Assembly: GCA_027315405.1 (NCBI GenBank)
Contig: DAHUYB010000057.1
Coordinates: 8,380-72,379 of the forward strand
Reading direction: 5' to 3'
Length of the DNA stretch: 64,000 nucleotides
From: Gammaproteobacteria bacterium
Lineage (GTDB): Bacteria > Pseudomonadota > Gammaproteobacteria > Natronospirales > REEB76
The position numbers were made by a program, and so were the translations under genes. The stretch's first letter is position 1; each line of letters begins with the position of its first letter. Of the stretch, positions 14,972 through 21,932 are shown in pieces. The notes under the pieces were generated by a model. It searched no databases. It saw only the letters and a program-made list of their open reading frames with translations, and was not told where the DNA came from.

Positions 14972-15144
14972 GTTGGGCGTTCCTCGCTGTGCAGGCTGCG
15001 GCGGCGTAATTCCTTAAGCAGCGCATGTTGCTGGCGTCCCGGCCAAATGGCATTCGCCAGGAGCACCACCAGCGCGGTGCCATAAGCAGGCCAGACGTAG
15101 ACCGCGTAACCGCCCATGGTGAGAAACTCATGCCAGGAGTTCAT
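14968..15144 (-). CDS. ccmD: Heme exporter protein CcmD
   Basis: MNSWHEFLTMGGYAVYVWPAYG, 58 aa; ATGA overlaps with ccmC and ccmE. Confidence 0.9.
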   Translation of the reverse strand: MNSWHEFLTMGGYAVYVWPAYGTALVVLLANAIWPGRQQHALLKELRRRSLHSEERPT

Positions 15145-15878
15145 GATTTCGCCACCAGTGCCCGCACCCACGCGGTATTGCGCTCCCGTTGCAGCACTTC
15201 CACCTGCAGGCGTTTCAGGATGAAGGCGGCGAAATACACCATAAAACCGATAATCATGATAAATAATGGGATGTACATGCTGGGCGGCATTTCTGCCCGT
15301 GGACCGAAGAACACTGTCGGACCCTGGTGCAGGGTGTTCCACCATTTTACCGAATAATGGATGATGGGAATATTGACGATGCCCACGAGCGCCAGGATGG
15401 CGCTTGCCCGGTCGCCGGTGCGCCGGTCCTCGAAGGCGTGATTGAGCGCCATGTAGCCGACATAAAGGAACAACAAAATCAACTCCGACGTCAATCGCGC
15501 ATCCCATACCCAGTAAGTCCCCCACATGGGTTTGCCCCACAAGGAGCCGGTCACCAGGGCGATAAACGTGAAGGATGCGCCCAGCGGCGCCGCGGCGGCA
15601 GACACCGCGTGAGCCAGTTTCATGCGCCAAATGAGGCCGATAGCCGCCGCCACCGCCATAACCATGTAAACCAACATCGACATCCAGGCGCTTGGCACGT
15701 GCACATAAATGATACGAAACCCGTCACCCTGCTGGTAATCCGGCGGCGCCAGCCACAAGCCGCCATACAAACCCGCTGCTATCACGAATAGACTCAGCCA
15801 GCCCAGCCACGGCGCGAGCATGCCGGCAAACTTATAAAAGTACGGCGGCGATGCCAGCTTATGGAACCAGATAAACAT
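15141..15878 (-). CDS. ccmC: Heme exporter protein CcmC
   Basis: YVHVP, WGKPMWGTYWVWDARLT (WWD motif), WWNTLHQ. Confidence 0.96.
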   Translation of the reverse strand: MFIWFHKLASPPYFYKFAGMLAPWLGWLSLFVIAAGLYGGLWLAPPDYQQGDGFRIIYVHVPSAWMSMLVYMVMAVAAAIGLIWRMKLAHAVSAAAAPLGASFTFIALVTGSLWGKPMWGTYWVWDARLTSELILLFLYVGYMALNHAFEDRRTGDRASAILALVGIVNIPIIHYSVKWWNTLHQGPTVFFGPRAEMPPSMYIPLFIMIIGFMVYFAAFILKRLQVEVLQRERNTAWVRALVAKS

Positions 15879-15904
15879 GTTTCTTCCTATTACTGTAGAG
15901 ATCA

Positions 15905-15916
15905 TCTCAATTGCCG
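15905..15916 (+). repeat. Direct repeat, ccmC-proximal copy
   Basis: tctcaattgccg, 11/12 identical to 21245-21256. Confidence 0.55.
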
Positions 15917-16302
15917 ACGCAACCGGTCCACCTTTTGTTTAACTGGTGCGTCGGTGATAAGCAGTTTCCCGAAGATGATATCCTCCGTGGGAGGACGTGC
16001 AATGCTGGAAAACTCGCGCACATAGTAAAGGGTTTTGGCCAGCAGCACGAGATCCGATGTATCCTGCCATCCCAATAATATGCATCGTATGTTGGCATGT
16101 TCCTGGTGCAACTTGCCGATGGCATTGACAGGCATTTCGATAACGTCGCTGGACTCGGTATAAACGGTACGGTCCAAGCGTCCCATCCCATCGCCCCAGC
16201 GACGATAGTATGGACCATTCCCTTCGCCCGACTGTCCTGCGTTCGGGCGCGGCCCGCCCACGATTTTCGCACACAAGCATAAACCACCCTGGTGGGGACA
16301 CC

Positions 16303-16316
16303 ATGATATAGATCAA
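16303..16316. promoter_or_regulatory. FNR/Anr-like box
   Basis: ATGAT-atag-ATCAA, 9/10 match to TTGAT-N4-ATCAA, non-coding context. Confidence 0.5.
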
Positions 16317-16576
16317 CTTGATCAACTCCTCGTCTCGTAATGCGGTATCAACCGCCAACACACTGCAGCGGCAGGCAAACAGCGGTTTTCTTGATCCAGG
16401 TCATTCCGTCCACGTTGGGCTACGCGCAATATCATCCATCAAGGATAATTTGTTTAACAGCATTGTTGCTGCTGAGGGAGGTTGTTGCTGCCGTACGGAT
16501 ATCTGTTTGATTCCGCTCGCTTGCAAGAGGCGGTGAAAATATGCCGTAACGTGCGAGCTTTAAATGGAGAATCAAG

Positions 16577-17314
16577 ATGAGTGGCAAGATGTCTTTTGCC
16601 GACTGTTCCATCAGTGAAAAACTTCTCTACAGTGCCTTCCTGTGCGTAGTGGGTATCGGCTATCTGATGGCGCTGACACTCATCTATCTCACCGACGCCG
16701 GCCTGGATGGCAAGTCGGGAATTAACGTGCAGGACATCGCCATTTCATATTACGGCAACCGCAGCGGTACCAAGATGGAGGCCATGTTGCGGGGGCCGAT
16801 GCGCATTTACAGCAAACCCCTCGATACCGCGCTGCTAGTGGACTGGCTCGAGTCGGGAGCTACCAAGAGCGGCTATGATGCCATCGCGCACCCCATCCTG
16901 CAGAAGGACTGTTTAGCCTGCCACTCCGGCGAAACCGCCAAACGCATGGGGATACCCGACTATTCCATGTACGAGGGCGTGCGTTCTGTCACCCAGAGAA
17001 ACACCGGGGCATCCCTCGAGTCGCTGGTGAAACTATCGCACATACATTTGTTCGGAGTCGGCCTGCTGCTGTTTGTGGTGGGCTTCATCTTCAGACTGGC
17101 GGTGCTGAACCGTTGGCTCAAATGGACATTAATCGTGACACCGTTCGCCTCGATCCTGGCGGATATCCTCGCCTGGTTCCTGACCAAGTGGGATCCGCTA
17201 TACGCCTATGTGGTGGTTATCGCCGGCGCGGTCATGGGGGTGGCATTTACCGCCCAGATTCTGATTTCCCTTTACCAGATTTGGTTATTGCACGTGCCGC
17301 GCGAAGCCCCATGA
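16577..17314 (+). CDS. Uncharacterised 4-TM membrane protein with a c-type heme motif
   Basis: SD ggag; TM1, then a soluble domain with CLACH, then SHIHLFG and three more TM helices. Confidence 0.8.
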   Translation: MSGKMSFADCSISEKLLYSAFLCVVGIGYLMALTLIYLTDAGLDGKSGINVQDIAISYYGNRSGTKMEAMLRGPMRIYSKPLDTALLVDWLESGATKSGYDAIAHPILQKDCLACHSGETAKRMGIPDYSMYEGVRSVTQRNTGASLESLVKLSHIHLFGVGLLLFVVGFIFRLAVLNRWLKWTLIVTPFASILADILAWFLTKWDPLYAYVVVIAGAVMGVAFTAQILISLYQIWLLHVPREAP

Positions 17315-17385
17315 ATTAGGAACGAGATCGGCCGTACTTGGGTGAAACTGTCACAGTTTTCTACGCTACCTTGAGGAGGATTACC

Positions 17386-17871
17386 ATGACAACGCAATAC
17401 GCCACCGGATGGGTCTCCGCGCTATTGGCGCTGAGCATATTGGGCATCAGTCACGGAGTATTTGCTCAGGACCAGGGGCACGCCCACATGATTGATGGCG
17501 TGGCTGTGTACCTCGGTGTCATTCCCGCCGAACTCATCTCCGGCGAATACCCGAAACAGGCTCCCGAGCACCAGATGCACGGCGGCGTGCCGAGCGGGGA
17601 TCACTGGCACCATGTGAACGTGGCTATCTACAACGATGCCACCGGCCAGCGCATCACCAATGCGCGTGTGGTCGCGCAAGTATGGTCGCCGGAAGAGGTC
17701 AACCTGCCGATTCAGAAAAAACCGCTGGAGCCTATGAGCATCGCGGGGGCTGAGACCTACGGCAACTATTTCCACATGCCCGGTACCGCAATGTACTTCA
17801 TCAAAGTGGAAATTGGCCGTCCCGGTTACACGCCGATTATCACCACCTTCAAGTACTACCATCGATCCTAG
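17386..17871 (+). CDS. His/Met-rich periplasmic metal-binding protein, P19/FetP-like
   Basis: SD gaggagg; signal peptide ending VFA; HAHM, HQMHGG, HWHH, LEPM..YGNYF motifs. Confidence 0.7.
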   Translation: MTTQYATGWVSALLALSILGISHGVFAQDQGHAHMIDGVAVYLGVIPAELISGEYPKQAPEHQMHGGVPSGDHWHHVNVAIYNDATGQRITNARVVAQVWSPEEVNLPIQKKPLEPMSIAGAETYGNYFHMPGTAMYFIKVEIGRPGYTPIITTFKYYHRS

Positions 17872-18187
17872 CAGACGGCAGCACGGGGATCGCGGCCAGA
17901 CCAGACATCGGCGCGGAGGATGCGGCCAACTTAGGGAACCCACAATACCAGCGTAAACTGGTGGCCGTTCATCGCGTGGATGGCTAGCGCATAGTGGCCG
18001 AGCGCCAAACGTGTGGAGCGATTGACGGCAAACTGATCGCCGCTCACGTCCCGACCTTGACATTGATGCCGGCATAACCGGGAGCGAGCTGTTGTAGTCG
18101 TAATTATTGGCAAACACGCGCTTGGACAGCGCGGTGAGAGCTGCCCCGTTCCACGCCTCCTCTGTCTTTCCATCGGGACCCCGAAGT

Positions 18188-18613
18188 GGAGTACTGACAA
18201 TGTTCGTCGCGCTGCTTGCCGGTGGTTACCTATTGCTGCAGAGCGGGAGGATATCGGCGAATGCGGATGGCAAGCTGAGCCGGCTTGAACTCTGGATGGC
18301 ACACACCTCTCTGCGCGCGACGCTGCGGCATCAGGCGCCCCGAGGGCTCTGATCCGCTGCCGCTGACGAATGCCAATCTGATCGCTGGGATACCCTTTAT
18401 GGAAGGCCGCCGCAACTTGCGAGCGACGGCGTCGAGGATGACCCGCCGGGGTATTCCTTCTGGAAGATTAAACATGGCATTCGGTTAACCGGAATGCCCT
18501 CGTTCAAGGGTACGCTGATGGATCAGCAAATATGGATGATTGCACTCTTTCTAAAGCATATGAATGCGTTACCGCCGACAGCCGAACATGCATGGCAAGA
18601 AGTCAGGAACTGA
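18188..18613 (+). pseudogene. Cytochrome c pseudogene (frameshifted, CxxCH segment deleted)
   Basis: Across frames: ANADGKLSRLELWMAHTSLRATLR / DPLPLTNANLIAGI / LYGRPPQLASDGVEDDPPGYSFWKIKHGIRLTGMPSF..IWMIALFLKHM; no CxxCH. Confidence 0.8.
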
Positions 18614-18762
18614 TTCACCGTGGCCAGGAAATGCCGGACTGCATCCAATTACCATCATCACACGCGACCGCATCCGGCGCGGCAACGCTCTCGGTACTCT
18701 CCTGGGTAGTGATCGGTTCCCTGGCTTGTCGGATCGGATGTGCGACTTCGGGCGGGTATGTC

Positions 18763-19440
18763 TCACTTGATGTCATGACGCTCAAACGTCTGGCGGATAT
18801 ACAAAACGACCCGGCGGATATCCTTTGGACTCAGTCGGCTGCCCCACGGAGCCATGGCGCTGCCCGGTTTGCCATACTCCACCACAAACATCAGCTGTTT
18901 GTCGCTGATATCCGCCATATCCATGCTGGTGAAATCCTTGGGATTGGGGAACAAGCCGCGGCCCAGCGGAGTTTGGCCGTTGCCCTTATCGCCGTGACAG
19001 ACGCTGCAGTATTTCTGGTAGACGTGTTCACCCACCAGAATATCGAGCTTGGCCTGGGTTATTCCCGCAGGCAGCGGCTGTTGGAGACTGTGGATGTAAT
19101 GCAGCACATCAAATATATCCGCCGGGCTGAGGATTTCCCTCCAACTTGGCATAGCGGTCCCGGCGCGGCCCAGTTCGATGGCGGCAATCATCTGGCTGTC
19201 GTCCAACCGGGCCATGATGATTGGATCGGCGAAGTCGCGCGGGCGTGGCCTCAAAAGCCGGCCGATCGGCGTATCGGCACGGCCATCCGTGCCGTGACAA
19301 GCGGCACAATGCTTCACGTAGATTGCCTTGCCCCACAGGGTGCTTCGCTGGGGAACATTGCCGGCAGTGAGCGGCATGATCCACACCAGACTGAAGATGA
19401 AGCAGACGATCACAAAAGCCACAAGGCGATAAATTTTCAT
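18763..19440 (-). CDS. Periplasmic di-heme cytochrome c
   Basis: Signal/anchor; CAACH and CSVCH, each followed by P.P.DF and AMP.W/AMAPW axial Met motifs. Confidence 0.9.
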   Translation of the reverse strand: MKIYRLVAFVIVCFIFSLVWIMPLTAGNVPQRSTLWGKAIYVKHCAACHGTDGRADTPIGRLLRPRPRDFADPIIMARLDDSQMIAAIELGRAGTAMPSWREILSPADIFDVLHYIHSLQQPLPAGITQAKLDILVGEHVYQKYCSVCHGDKGNGQTPLGRGLFPNPKDFTSMDMADISDKQLMFVVEYGKPGSAMAPWGSRLSPKDIRRVVLYIRQTFERHDIK

Positions 19441-19600
19441 CTTGAGTCCTTTGCTGTGTTTTCTGACAATCAATACGGCTGCTGCGCGTCGGTTCGATCC
19501 CAGACATGGATACCGGCCTTTACCCGCTCAGATGTGCAGCTCCGTCTGCCGGCAATCGCAACAAGCATCACTTCCCTTGCGGCGCTAGCACCGTTCCCGT

Positions 19601-19957
19601 TCATTTGCCTGACACGCCAAACGTCTGCCGCATATAGGCCAGGACCGCCAGAATATCCGCCCGGCTGAGCGAGGGATTGCCGCCCTTGGCAGGCATTGCC
19701 ATGGGCGACCCCGGGCTCTGATAGCCGTTCATGATCCTGTCCACGAGCAGTTTGTCGGAACTACCGAGCACGCCGCCCTTGGTGCTAAAATCCGGCGCCC
19801 CAGGGATGGTGCCCTTGCCGTCCATACCATGGCAGGCAACACAGTTCTGGTTATAGATCTGCTCGCCGTTCGGGACATTCCCGGCGACAACATTGCCGGA
19901 TGCTGTTACCAGCAGCAACCAACCTCCGAGACTGGCTGCCAACATACATAAGCGCAT
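19601..19957 (-). CDS. Periplasmic mono-heme class I cytochrome c
   Basis: SD gaggag; signal peptide; CVACH; AMPAKGG axial Met. Confidence 0.9.
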   Translation of the reverse strand: MRLCMLAASLGGWLLLVTASGNVVAGNVPNGEQIYNQNCVACHGMDGKGTIPGAPDFSTKGGVLGSSDKLLVDRIMNGYQSPGSPMAMPAKGGNPSLSRADILAVLAYMRQTFGVSGK

Positions 19958-20020
19958 ATCGAATCTCCTCTGGTACGCGGGTCGGCGGCCGGTCAATGAC
20001 CATGACGGGCCATGCCATCC

Positions 20021-20646
20021 CTAGAAAGACAACATGACGTTGAAATAAAGCGTGTTGTTATCCGTGGCATTGCGACCGTCGGATAGCCATAGGCCGGGGT
20101 GCTATTCCAGACGTCCTCCAGAGTAGGCGCGTTGTTGAAGGTGCCACCGAATATCGTATCCATACCGCTCCAGTTCGCATGATTGGCATAGCGCACGTCC
20201 ATCATGTCTACCGCTACTTTGCCCGAATCTTGGTCGTAACCGAGTTCAATGACGGTGCCGACATGTGGCGTCGCCTCCCCCGCCAAGTAGAGCGCCAAGG
20301 TTTGCGGGAATGCGGCACTCGGATTCTGCTGCCCCGGAACCGCTTGGCTCAGACTGGTCAGACCAGCCTGCACAATGGCTGATACCGGCATATCACGGTT
20401 GAGGCTCATGCCGGGTGCCTGCTGGGTTTCCTTGGCCACCACCTGTGCGAGACCGGCCATGGTGTAACCATTCAGCTTGAACTGTCTGCCCAAAGGGGTC
20501 AGCGCGGGATAAATGGTGTGGCAGGCCGCACACGCGAGCCCCGTCTGACGCGAGAAGCTCGGCACCGCATACGCTGCCTGCGTAAACGCTGCCATCCCCA
20601 CCGCAACAAGCACTAACGCGAGCGTACTATGGTGCATGTCACGCAT
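20021..20646 (-). pseudogene. cyc2: Cyc2-type fused cytochrome-porin, internally deleted
   Basis: AVPSFSRQTGLACAACHTIYPALTPLGRQFKLNGY signature; NNAPTLEDVWNSTP; original C-terminus DGRNATDNNTLYFNVMLSF* follows directly in another frame (stop 20021-20023); frameshifted ORF runs to 19993. Confidence 0.85.
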
Positions 20647-20718
20647 GATTCATCTCCCTGTGAGAAACAAGACGCAACCTTGCAATAATTAATAGACACC
20701 GATAAGGCAGCGCGTACC

Positions 20719-20732
20719 TTGATCTAAGTCAA
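20719..20732. promoter_or_regulatory. FNR/Anr-like box upstream of cyc2
   Basis: TTGAT-ctaa-GTCAA (9/10), centred ~80 bp before the cyc2 ATG, with an AT-rich -10-like stretch in between. Confidence 0.62.
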
Positions 20733-20749
20733 CTAACCGCGCGATGGGA

Positions 20750-20910
20750 TCAGGGTTCGAGGTTTATACACAGTCCACCTGCAATGGCAAAAGGCGCAAG
20801 CGTATAAATGCCGGGCACCAGCATGACGCCGAGAAAATGGAGTGGCATTGCCATGGTTTTGCCGTCAGCCGCCTGCGGTGCTCGCGTCAAAGATCGGTAC
20901 TGGCACGCCG
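20750..20910 (-). pseudogene. Decayed duplicate of the ccmB 3' end
   Basis: GVPVPIFDASTAG / PLHFLGVML..TLAPFAIAGGLCINLEP* versus CcmB SVPVLIFGAAAAG..PLYFLGAML..TLAPFAIAGGLRVSLES*. Confidence 0.85.
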
Positions 20911-21244
20911 ATGGAAAATATACGCTCCTGATGCCATCGTGGGATAATGCCGACAAGTCACTGTCACTCGCTTTTCCTCACGTCGTTACCCTGCCCAGAT
21001 ATCAATCTGCTGACGCAGCTTGTGTGAGCCCCTCTGTCTTCATGTCGGTATCCAATCGCCCACCACCACATATTGGCGGCACTGACTCCGCCCCTTTCTC
21101 CTGCCAAGCGTCGCACACCGCGCCCATACCGCAGGACGACAAGCACAGTCAAAACGACGAGCCACCACACCCATCCGGAAAATACCTTCCCTTGAAACAT
21201 CTACCCATGTTTGAACGCGACCACAAAATAAATTTCAATTCCCG

Positions 21245-21256
21245 TCTCAATTACCG
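21245..21256 (+). repeat. Direct repeat, ccmB-proximal copy
   Basis: tctcaattaccg, 10 nt past the ccmB stop. Confidence 0.55.
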
Positions 21257-21266
21257 CATCCGGGAC

Positions 21267-21932
21267 TCAGGACTCGAGACTTACCCTTAGACCACCGGCG
21301 ATGGCGAAGGGTGCAAGTGTCAGCGCCAACATCAGCATGGCGCCAAGAAAATACAAGGGCGCCGCCGCCGGATCACCGAGTGCCGCTCGGCCGGCAGCCG
21401 CTGCGCCGAAAATCAACACCGGCACCGACAGTGGCAACACCAAAATAGGCAATAGCATGCCGCCACGCCGTAATCCCACCGTCAGGCCGGCACCCACCGC
21501 GCCTAAAAAACTCAGCACCGGTGTGCCCAAAAGCAGGCTCATGACCAGCACACCCATGGCGTTCGTCGGGTAATTCAACAACAACGCCATCAGCGACGAC
21601 AGGATTACCAGTGGCAACCCAGTCACCAGCCAATGAGTAAATACCCGCAGCAATACCATCCATTCCAGGGGGATCGGACTCAACAGCATAAGTTCGAGAC
21701 TACCATCTTCGTAATCGCTCTTGAATAGACTATCTTGGCCGATCAAGCCCGCCAACAGTGCCGCTACCCAAATGACCCCTGGCGCAAGACTGCGCAACAA
21801 GGCCGGTTCCGGACTAAGTGCCAGTGGAAACAGGGTGGTGACAATCACGAAAAAAATCACCGGCGTGACCAGCTCGCCTCTGCGGCGATAGGCCAAGCGT
21901 AAATCACGCTCAATGAGCGCAGTGACCCTCAC
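21267..21932 (-). CDS. ccmB: Heme exporter permease CcmB
   Basis: ERDLRLAYR, PGVIWVAALLA, DYEDGSLE, HWLVTGLP; GTGA overlap with ccmA. Confidence 0.93.
   Translation of the reverse strand: MRVTALIERDLRLAYRRRGELVTPVIFFVIVTTLFPLALSPEPALLRSLAPGVIWVAALLAGLIGQDSLFKSDYEDGSLELMLLSPIPLEWMVLLRVFTHWLVTGLPLVILSSLMALLLNYPTNAMGVLVMSLLLGTPVLSFLGAVGAGLTVGLRRGGMLLPILVLPLSVPVLIFGAAAAGRAALGDPAAAPLYFLGAMLMLALTLAPFAIAGGLRVSLES

Follow-up and report, generated by a model that had tools for sequence, protein, structure and literature searches.

Introduction

The gene cyc2 is widely used as a marker for microbial iron oxidation. In the part of Keffer et al. (2021; PMC8406198) that sets out the features of the family, Cyc2 proteins are described as carrying a signal peptide, one CXXCH haem motif with the sequence AXPXFAR[Q/K][T/Y] just upstream of it, PXL four residues past the CXXCH, and a 16-stranded porin that resembles OprO/OprP. 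The rule by which FeGenie calls Cyc2, as worded in the relevant section of PMC7005843, combines the haem motif with a length of at least 375 aa.

The sequence described here comes from a gammaproteobacterial draft genome, of which a stretch of 64,000 nucleotides was analysed; this whole stretch is referred to as the window. A 217-aa ORF on its minus strand represents the 5′ stub of a Cyc2-type cytochrome-porin gene, named cyc2-A (Table 1). An earlier note on this DNA had recognised the gene and its deletion, and this part stood; the surroundings were missed, namely a decaying cytochrome island with about seven gaps, this deletion among them. In our assessment the stub is very probably a real but ordinary deletion pseudogene of a known family, lying in a decaying and recently exchanged island, and the intact second copy found elsewhere in the same genome makes this a case of ordinary gene decay.

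Table 1. Features of the cytochrome island in the window (window positions) and gaps relative to the corresponding island of genome G002.
Feature	Position	Strand	G002 / window (bp)	Basis and remarks
Cytochrome island, about 5 kb	16136..21251			Between ccmC (15141..15905, −) and ccmB (from 21267, −) of the cytochrome c maturation operon
Site of the lost second cyc2 gene	16136..16274		1533 / 139	cyc2-B (457 aa) in G002; no cyc2-B remnant here
Broken remnant of a 172-aa cytochrome c gene	18185..18610	+		5′ end gone (263-bp gap), 75-bp CAICH piece gone, internal stops; Pfam on the G002 version
Di-haem c4-type cytochrome gene, intact, 236 aa	18763..19473	−		Pfam PF13442, two stretches
Mono-haem cytochrome c gene, intact, 131-aa ORF	19601..19996	−		Pfam PF00034 and PF13442; translation probably starts at the ATG of MRLCML
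cyc2-A stub as present-day ORF, 217 aa	19993..20646	−		ORF reading
cyc2-A 3′ remnant, codons 431-448 (GRNATDNNTLYFNVMLSF) and stop codon	20021..20077	−		Now out of frame, hence untranslated
Deletion junction	20078..20079		723 / 2	Two unmatched bases (GT, + strand) where the orthologue carries 723 bp; flanked by matched blocks that end at 20077 and resume at 20080
cyc2-A 5′ remnant, codons 1-189	20080..20646	−		blastn and tblastn against the G002 orthologue; strands from the AlphaFold model of the orthologue
Duplicated ccmB 3′-end fragment, just upstream of cyc2-A	20756..20851	−		BLASTP, 21/32 identical to the ccmB C-terminus, E 3e-9
Caa3_CtaG assembly-factor remnant, residues 44-100 of 336	21072..21242	−		Pfam PF09678 on the G002 version
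Gap 1			1533 / 139	Second cyc2 gene (457 aa) removed entirely
Gap 2			263 / 0	5′ end of the 172-aa cytochrome c gene removed
Gap 3			75 / 0	CAICH haem site of the 172-aa cytochrome c gene removed
Gap 4			101 / 2	Intergenic, net 99 bp
Gap 5			723 / 2	cyc2-A deletion, net 721 bp
Gap 6			797 / 271	With gap 7, Caa3_CtaG cut to residues 44-100 of 336
Gap 7			190 / 7	Acts with gap 6 on Caa3_CtaG

The cyc2-A stub and its deletion

The present-day ORF reads MRDMH...AVPSFSRQTGLACAACHTIYPALTPLGRQFKLNGY...NSTPAYGYP and then continues into 28 unrelated residues, so that 189 genuine residues and an out-of-frame tail make up its 217 aa. The retained part holds the signal peptide, the AVPSFSRQT motif, the CAACH haem site, the PAL motif and barrel strands 1-5. 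In the adjoining frame of the same strand, the sequence reads DGRNATDNNTLYFNVMLSF and stops at 20021-20023, and homology to an intact orthologue identifies this shifted-frame tail, ending at 20021, as the true 3′ end of cyc2-A. The orthologue in question is an open gene of 448 codons in G002, a genome of the same genus, and is 93% identical to the stub over residues 1-189. With its product as tblastn query, residues 1-191 were matched at 20646-20074 in a single frame with 93% identity, while residues 430-448 were matched at 20080-20024 in the neighbouring frame, in agreement with the earlier description of a cyc2 gene with one internal deletion and both termini kept. Seventeen of the 18 final residues in the shifted frame are identical to those of the G002 orthologue, and such a match is, on sequence grounds, homology rather than chance. 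Longer relatives are abundant: a search with stub residues 1-190 gave 1828 candidates, of which 784 proteins had E <= 0.001, and the 120 of these that were listed measure 399-512 aa, the best of those listed being P0002 (448 aa, 94% identity).

Alignment of the two halves to the full-length orthologue, a check proposed along with the original observation, gave the size of the deletion. By blastn, positions 191-777 of the G002 locus (L002) correspond to window positions 19490-20077 and positions 1501-2221 to 20080-20800, in colinear blocks, and the 723 bp in between (778-1500, codons 190-430) have no counterpart in the window. The gene has thus exchanged 723 bp for 2 nt, a net loss of 721 bp that takes out 241 codons and shifts the frame. 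The intact part from the signal peptide to NSTPAYGYP had been read correctly, and the out-of-frame jump that follows it, formerly placed at about 20080, can now be put at 20078-20079; the statement that only a 217-aa ORF remains was likewise right.

The same earlier proposal to look for microhomology at the breakpoints gave nothing, as 0 shared bases were counted there, with G002 standing in for the ancestor; as G002 is 6% diverged, this evidence is weak. G002 is an imperfect ancestor also because the window keeps a longer ccmB 3′-end fragment than G002 does. The longest direct word shared by the 50-nt windows at the two breakpoints is 5 nt, a length attained by roughly one in two random pairs taken from this gene, and a 7-nt inverted match is equally unremarkable, about 12% of random direct pairs reaching 7. 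Ku (PF02735), which was searched as a test for end joining, had no match in the organism's own genome (98.2% complete). We infer that the deletion arose by illegitimate recombination in the broad sense of the term.

As a side observation, a GT filler followed by CGG is present at two of the seven gaps (19488-19489 and 20078-20079), possibly by coincidence. The gap at 19488-19489 is common to the genome G032, and is therefore the older one.

In regard to expression, the start codon, a GGGAGA ribosome-binding site (read by eye) and the haem motif of the stub are all undamaged, so that a translation product may still be made, to judge from these signals. A promoter and terminator scan of 18600-21300 gave counts no higher than those of shuffled sequences, and no promoter was placed. 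In the RNA runs X17-X20, only 0.06-0.10 of the words were present.

Assignment to the Cyc2 family

Searches of the 217-aa ORF against Pfam and NCBIfam returned no matching model, and the family was therefore identified from homologues and motifs. A profile search with an alignment of 30 homologues (A1, mean column identity 48%) against PDB sequences also had no match at E up to 1. The stub starts with MRDMHHSTLALVLVAVGMAAFTQAAYA followed by VP, which by direct reading is a signal peptide, and residues 2-20 form a helix in the orthologue model. There is a single CXXCH, C39-A-A-C42-H43, in which C39, C42 and H43 are invariant in the alignment, and no second one was seen by eye in the orthologue sequence. 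Three residues before the first Cys, AVPSFSRQT matches the published upstream motif in 8 of its 9 residues, the exception being an S where the motif has A, and its residues P29, R33, Q34 and T35 are invariant among the 30 homologues. The same holds for P47 and L49 of P47-A-L49, whose proline stands at H43+4 as expected for PXL.

An AlphaFold2 model of the G002 orthologue (mean pLDDT 83.5, pTM 0.81) shows 16 strands after an N-terminal haem region, with strands 1-5 located within residues 88-171, strands 6-15 within 214-420, and strand 16 at 439-447, followed by the terminal Phe. Foldseek comparison of this model with the PDB retrieved 16-stranded general porins with probability 1.00 and a top E value of 3.4e-10, OprP (2o4v) being ranked 29th. 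Projected onto the model, the deletion takes strands 6-15 and leaves strand 16 out of frame, so that only strands 1-5 are in frame in the window ORF, and the earlier estimate that more than half of the barrel had been removed is borne out by the loss of 10 of the 16 predicted strands. Judged by the motifs and the predicted fold together, the intact orthologue would fit Cyc2 on all sequence and fold features, and the window copy on all of them except the barrel. Homologues at 39-46% identity were found in MAGs labelled Gemmatimonadota, Bacteroidota, Acidobacteriota, Ignavibacteria, Gammaproteobacteria and Zetaproteobacteria; of the 579 loci confirmed in this search, 80 were retained.

The junction in independent contigs

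A deletion seen in a 99-contig draft genome, obtained from a mine-drainage metagenome type of sample, could in principle be produced by an assembler that skipped 721 bp of an intact cyc2-A, or could reflect a mixed population. The junction was therefore compared with Logan contigs of metagenome samples, a kind of data in which rare variants are dropped. In X1, which may be the source sample, a contig of 4872 bp built by this second assembler at depth 24 matches window positions 16290-21161 with 0 differences, and in X3, another sample of the same study, a contig of 782 bp covers 19569-20350, again with 0 differences; the junction is thus bridged in two samples, which at the level of contigs answers the earlier request for a check on misassembly. 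Further contigs from X3 span the gaps at 18187, 18402 and 19488. Some signs of a mixture are present, since other strains or species with intact island genes occur in the same runs, X1 has loose ends at 16246, 16319, 20895 and 20902, and a second X1 contig of 1737 bp, at depth 7, carries 864 extra letters between 21039 and 21072. However, none of the loose ends listed for X1 or X3 falls at 20078-20080, and the 217-aa product exists as five distinct sequences in ENA, NCBI and Logan assemblies. We consider it extremely improbable that an assembly artefact or a mixed population accounts for the junction, and the deletion in cyc2-A is real and strain-level, not an assembly error.

Strain-level variation is also visible in X5, a sample from another study. 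One of its contigs matches the window from 20080 onward, and the 30 letters before that point translate by hand to FVTSASAPTP, which is how the intact protein continues past GYP; at the right-hand breakpoint, the intact sequence thus survives in a near-identical strain. In X4, one contig stops exactly at 20079 and the next begins at 20114, which may indicate that both alleles are present, or may mean nothing. With contig data of this kind, X1 or X3 may still contain the intact allele as a minority. The exact 22-nt junction word had no match in JGI metagenome contigs.

Short relatives and the coding signal of the stub

The product of the stub might alternatively have been retained as a functional exported mono-haem cytochrome, that is, a new electron carrier, soluble or associated with the membrane, that descends from Cyc2, and its persistence as such a protein had been suggested before. 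In addition to the undamaged expression signals, signal peptide, CAACH site and PAL motif, the allele is present in at least two samples, and the dN/dS of the 189 retained codons against G002 is 0.23, within the range of 0.06-0.44 found for the intact neighbours. As far as such a ratio can indicate, there is no signal of relaxed constraint in the stub allele, and the value would fit a recent deletion without proving loss of function, since the low ratio can be explained by divergence that predates the deletion.

The distribution of short forms argues against retention. A search for short relatives among proteins of 119-380 aa gave 69 matches, and the stub architecture is found in one cluster only, formed at 90% identity, which consists of five sequences including the window's own and all sharing an identical nonsense tail. 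In one of the five variants CAACL replaces CAACH, and the haem-ligand His is lost. The seven other short matches, as read, each have a different break point and a different out-of-frame tail. From these comparisons, the 217-aa form is a five-sequence lineage allele and no conserved short family, which also settles the earlier question of whether it is kept as a family in its own right. Furthermore, an independent deletion in a sister species, described below, takes out the haem domain itself, and five orphan amphipathic strands with a 28-residue nonsense tail would be unlikely to fold. A functional stub is very improbable in our view, and the suggested persistence finds no support here. The non-function of the stub is what we would infer.

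The five alleles (P0122, P0191-P0194) differ from each other at 11 positions or fewer, in a block-like manner, their 5′ halves resembling the intact G002 allele and their 3′ halves the window. Blocks of this kind suggest that deleted and intact haplotypes have recombined, or else that the metagenome contigs are chimeric. The deletion junction stands on at least three haplotype backgrounds.

The cytochrome island and its decay

The stub is located in an island inserted between two genes of the cytochrome c maturation operon (Table 1). While the identity to G002 is 90-94% within the island, it is only 74-79% in the flanking ccm genes, and the dS of five island genes (0.08-0.27) is far below that of ccmB and ccmC (about 1.2). 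The island is thus far younger than its flanks, and has recently been exchanged between species. The duplicated fragment of the ccmB 3′ end upstream of cyc2-A may be a scar of its insertion.

Between 16136 and 21251, about seven gaps separate the window from G002, and apart from cyc2-A they affect a second cyc2 gene, a 172-aa cytochrome c gene, an intergenic stretch and the Caa3_CtaG assembly factor. Several side observations concern these neighbours. The 75-bp loss of CAICH in the 172-aa cytochrome c gene has identical breakpoints in the window and in G032 (L096 1-321); the window copy of this gene shows additional damage beyond that of G032, and the contigs of X4 and X5 are one base short at 18338. 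On the plus strand, a 245-aa membrane protein gene (16577-17314) and a 177-aa exported protein gene (17338-17871) belong to no Pfam family; their dN/dS is 0.06 and 0.17, respectively, and the G002 copy of the former has CFACH. By these ratios, both of these conserved genes are under purifying selection.

Related genomes and the intact paralogue

A DNA search of 21 genomes of the genus found sequence of the cyc2-A type in four, and the remaining 17, including the unpublished G009 and G011, on which the count partly depends, gave only weak matches to paralogues or none. The state of island decay differs in each of the four carrier genomes. In G002 all island genes are intact, and G032 has an intact cyc2-A of 448 aa, together with the gaps of 75 bp and 99 bp that it has in common with the window and a frameshifted CtaG. 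In the sister species G016 (L098, G016:C18 1568-1915, −), a different deletion of about 1.06 kb spares 4 codons at the N-terminal end and about 89 at the C-terminal end; a frameshift has been added, and the deletion junction shows about 5-6 nt of microhomology. The G016 allele matches 102-aa proteins (P0197, P0199 and P0206) on up to nine contigs. As this deletion differs from that of the window, cyc2-A has been knocked out twice, independently. The 131/132-aa mono-haem and the di-haem cytochrome genes downstream of cyc2-A are intact in all four carriers, the former in G002, G016 and G032 as well as in the window.

Such a pattern could be taken to mean that the loss of cyc2-A was selected rather than neutral, for instance because the protein is a phage receptor, a cost in acid water or a redundant iron oxidase, with the deletion allele spreading across haplotypes by recombination and the internal position of the deletion being constrained by expression signals that the two downstream cytochrome genes need. 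Two independent internal deletions among four genus genomes with cyc2-A, both of which spare the start and the 3′ end of the gene and leave the downstream cytochromes intact, would agree with this, as would the occurrence of the junction on several haplotype backgrounds. However, with n = 2 the pattern may be due to chance, the mosaic haplotypes may be chimeric contigs, and the promoter scan stayed at the level of shuffled sequences. Moreover, the CtaG, cyc2-B and 172-aa cytochrome genes nearby are lost or broken as well, which looks like general decay. We regard a selected loss as unlikely. If it were true, displaying the porin in mine drainage would seem to carry a cost, for example through phage attack or because the iron oxidase is redundant, and the remainder of the operon would have been put to new use together with a paralogous Cyc2.

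The organism's own genome holds an intact Cyc2 paralogue on another contig (G000:C99, L014 3718..5067), 449 aa long and 69% identical to cyc2-B of G002. After it comes a 170-aa cupredoxin gene (PF00127) and before it a gene for a Crp/Fnr-type regulator, and by its gene content this cluster (L014 2863-5564) looks like the organism's working Cyc2 module. A 468-aa ORF before the paralogue appears HemN-like by eye.

Discussion

As an explanation of the observed structures, we favour ordinary decay of a formerly complete gene. The ancestral cyc2-A would have had 448 codons, coding for a signal peptide, one c-type haem site and a 16-stranded outer-membrane barrel. A single event of illegitimate recombination would have removed 723 bp (codons 190-430), leaving two filler bases and a frameshift. 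What could still be translated is a 217-aa exported stub composed of the haem domain, five of the 16 strands and 28 nonsense residues, devoid of the Phe-ended C-terminal strand. By the general principles of barrel assembly, five orphan strands that lack the C-terminal strand cannot form a barrel, and the stub is therefore read as a pseudogene. Its product would be unable to close a barrel or to enter the outer membrane, and would probably be degraded. The loss is recent and strain-level, and forms part of the more general decay of an island that was exchanged horizontally and lies within the ccm operon.

In regard to the metabolism of the organism, the earlier note had warned that screens based on the haem domain could wrongly call it an iron oxidiser. 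This worry does not apply here, because the potential for iron oxidation of the Cyc2 type rests on the intact gene beside the cupredoxin gene, and any iron oxidation dependent on Cyc2 would depend on that paralogue. Besides, under the FeGenie rule as given in the section cited above, the 217-aa stub is too short, while the 449-aa paralogue and the 448-aa orthologues pass (PMC7005843). The general point is that a genome can retain the marker as a dead stub whose haem domain is perfect, and screens therefore need a check of length or barrel, and a length check of this kind is already present in FeGenie. On a small scale, the locus also illustrates the instability of iron-oxidation modules within one genus of mine-drainage Gammaproteobacteria. 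A full-text literature search found no description of this cyc2 deletion allele or of "truncated cyc2".

Among described proteins, Cyc2PV-1 of Mariprofundus ferrooxydans and Cyc2 of Acidithiobacillus ferrooxidans, to the extent that the cited part of PMC8406198 characterises them, resemble the intact orthologue in the signal peptide, the single CXXCH, PAL at H+4 and the predicted 16-strand barrel. A homologue from a zetaproteobacterial MAG (L017) is 45% identical, the comparison with the family being made through published motifs. Members of the cyc2-A clade would be putative iron oxidases. Unlike these proteins, the window copy is without strands 6-15 and has strand 16 in the wrong frame, and would be a member of the family by descent only. 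The barrel of the orthologue is also similar in fold to those of 16-stranded porins, namely OmpT and OmpU of Vibrio, Omp32, OmpF and OprP, with TM-scores by target of 0.5-0.64, but the identity is merely 8-15%, and those porins have no N-terminal haem domain.

A further likeness is to the ordinary deletion pseudogenes of newly acquired islands, with which cyc2-A shares the internal deletion and frameshift, the broken neighbours, the strain-level polymorphism and the differing lesions in sister genomes. There is no substantive difference from such pseudogenes, and the locus stands out only by its site in the ccm operon and by the two independent deletions of one gene.
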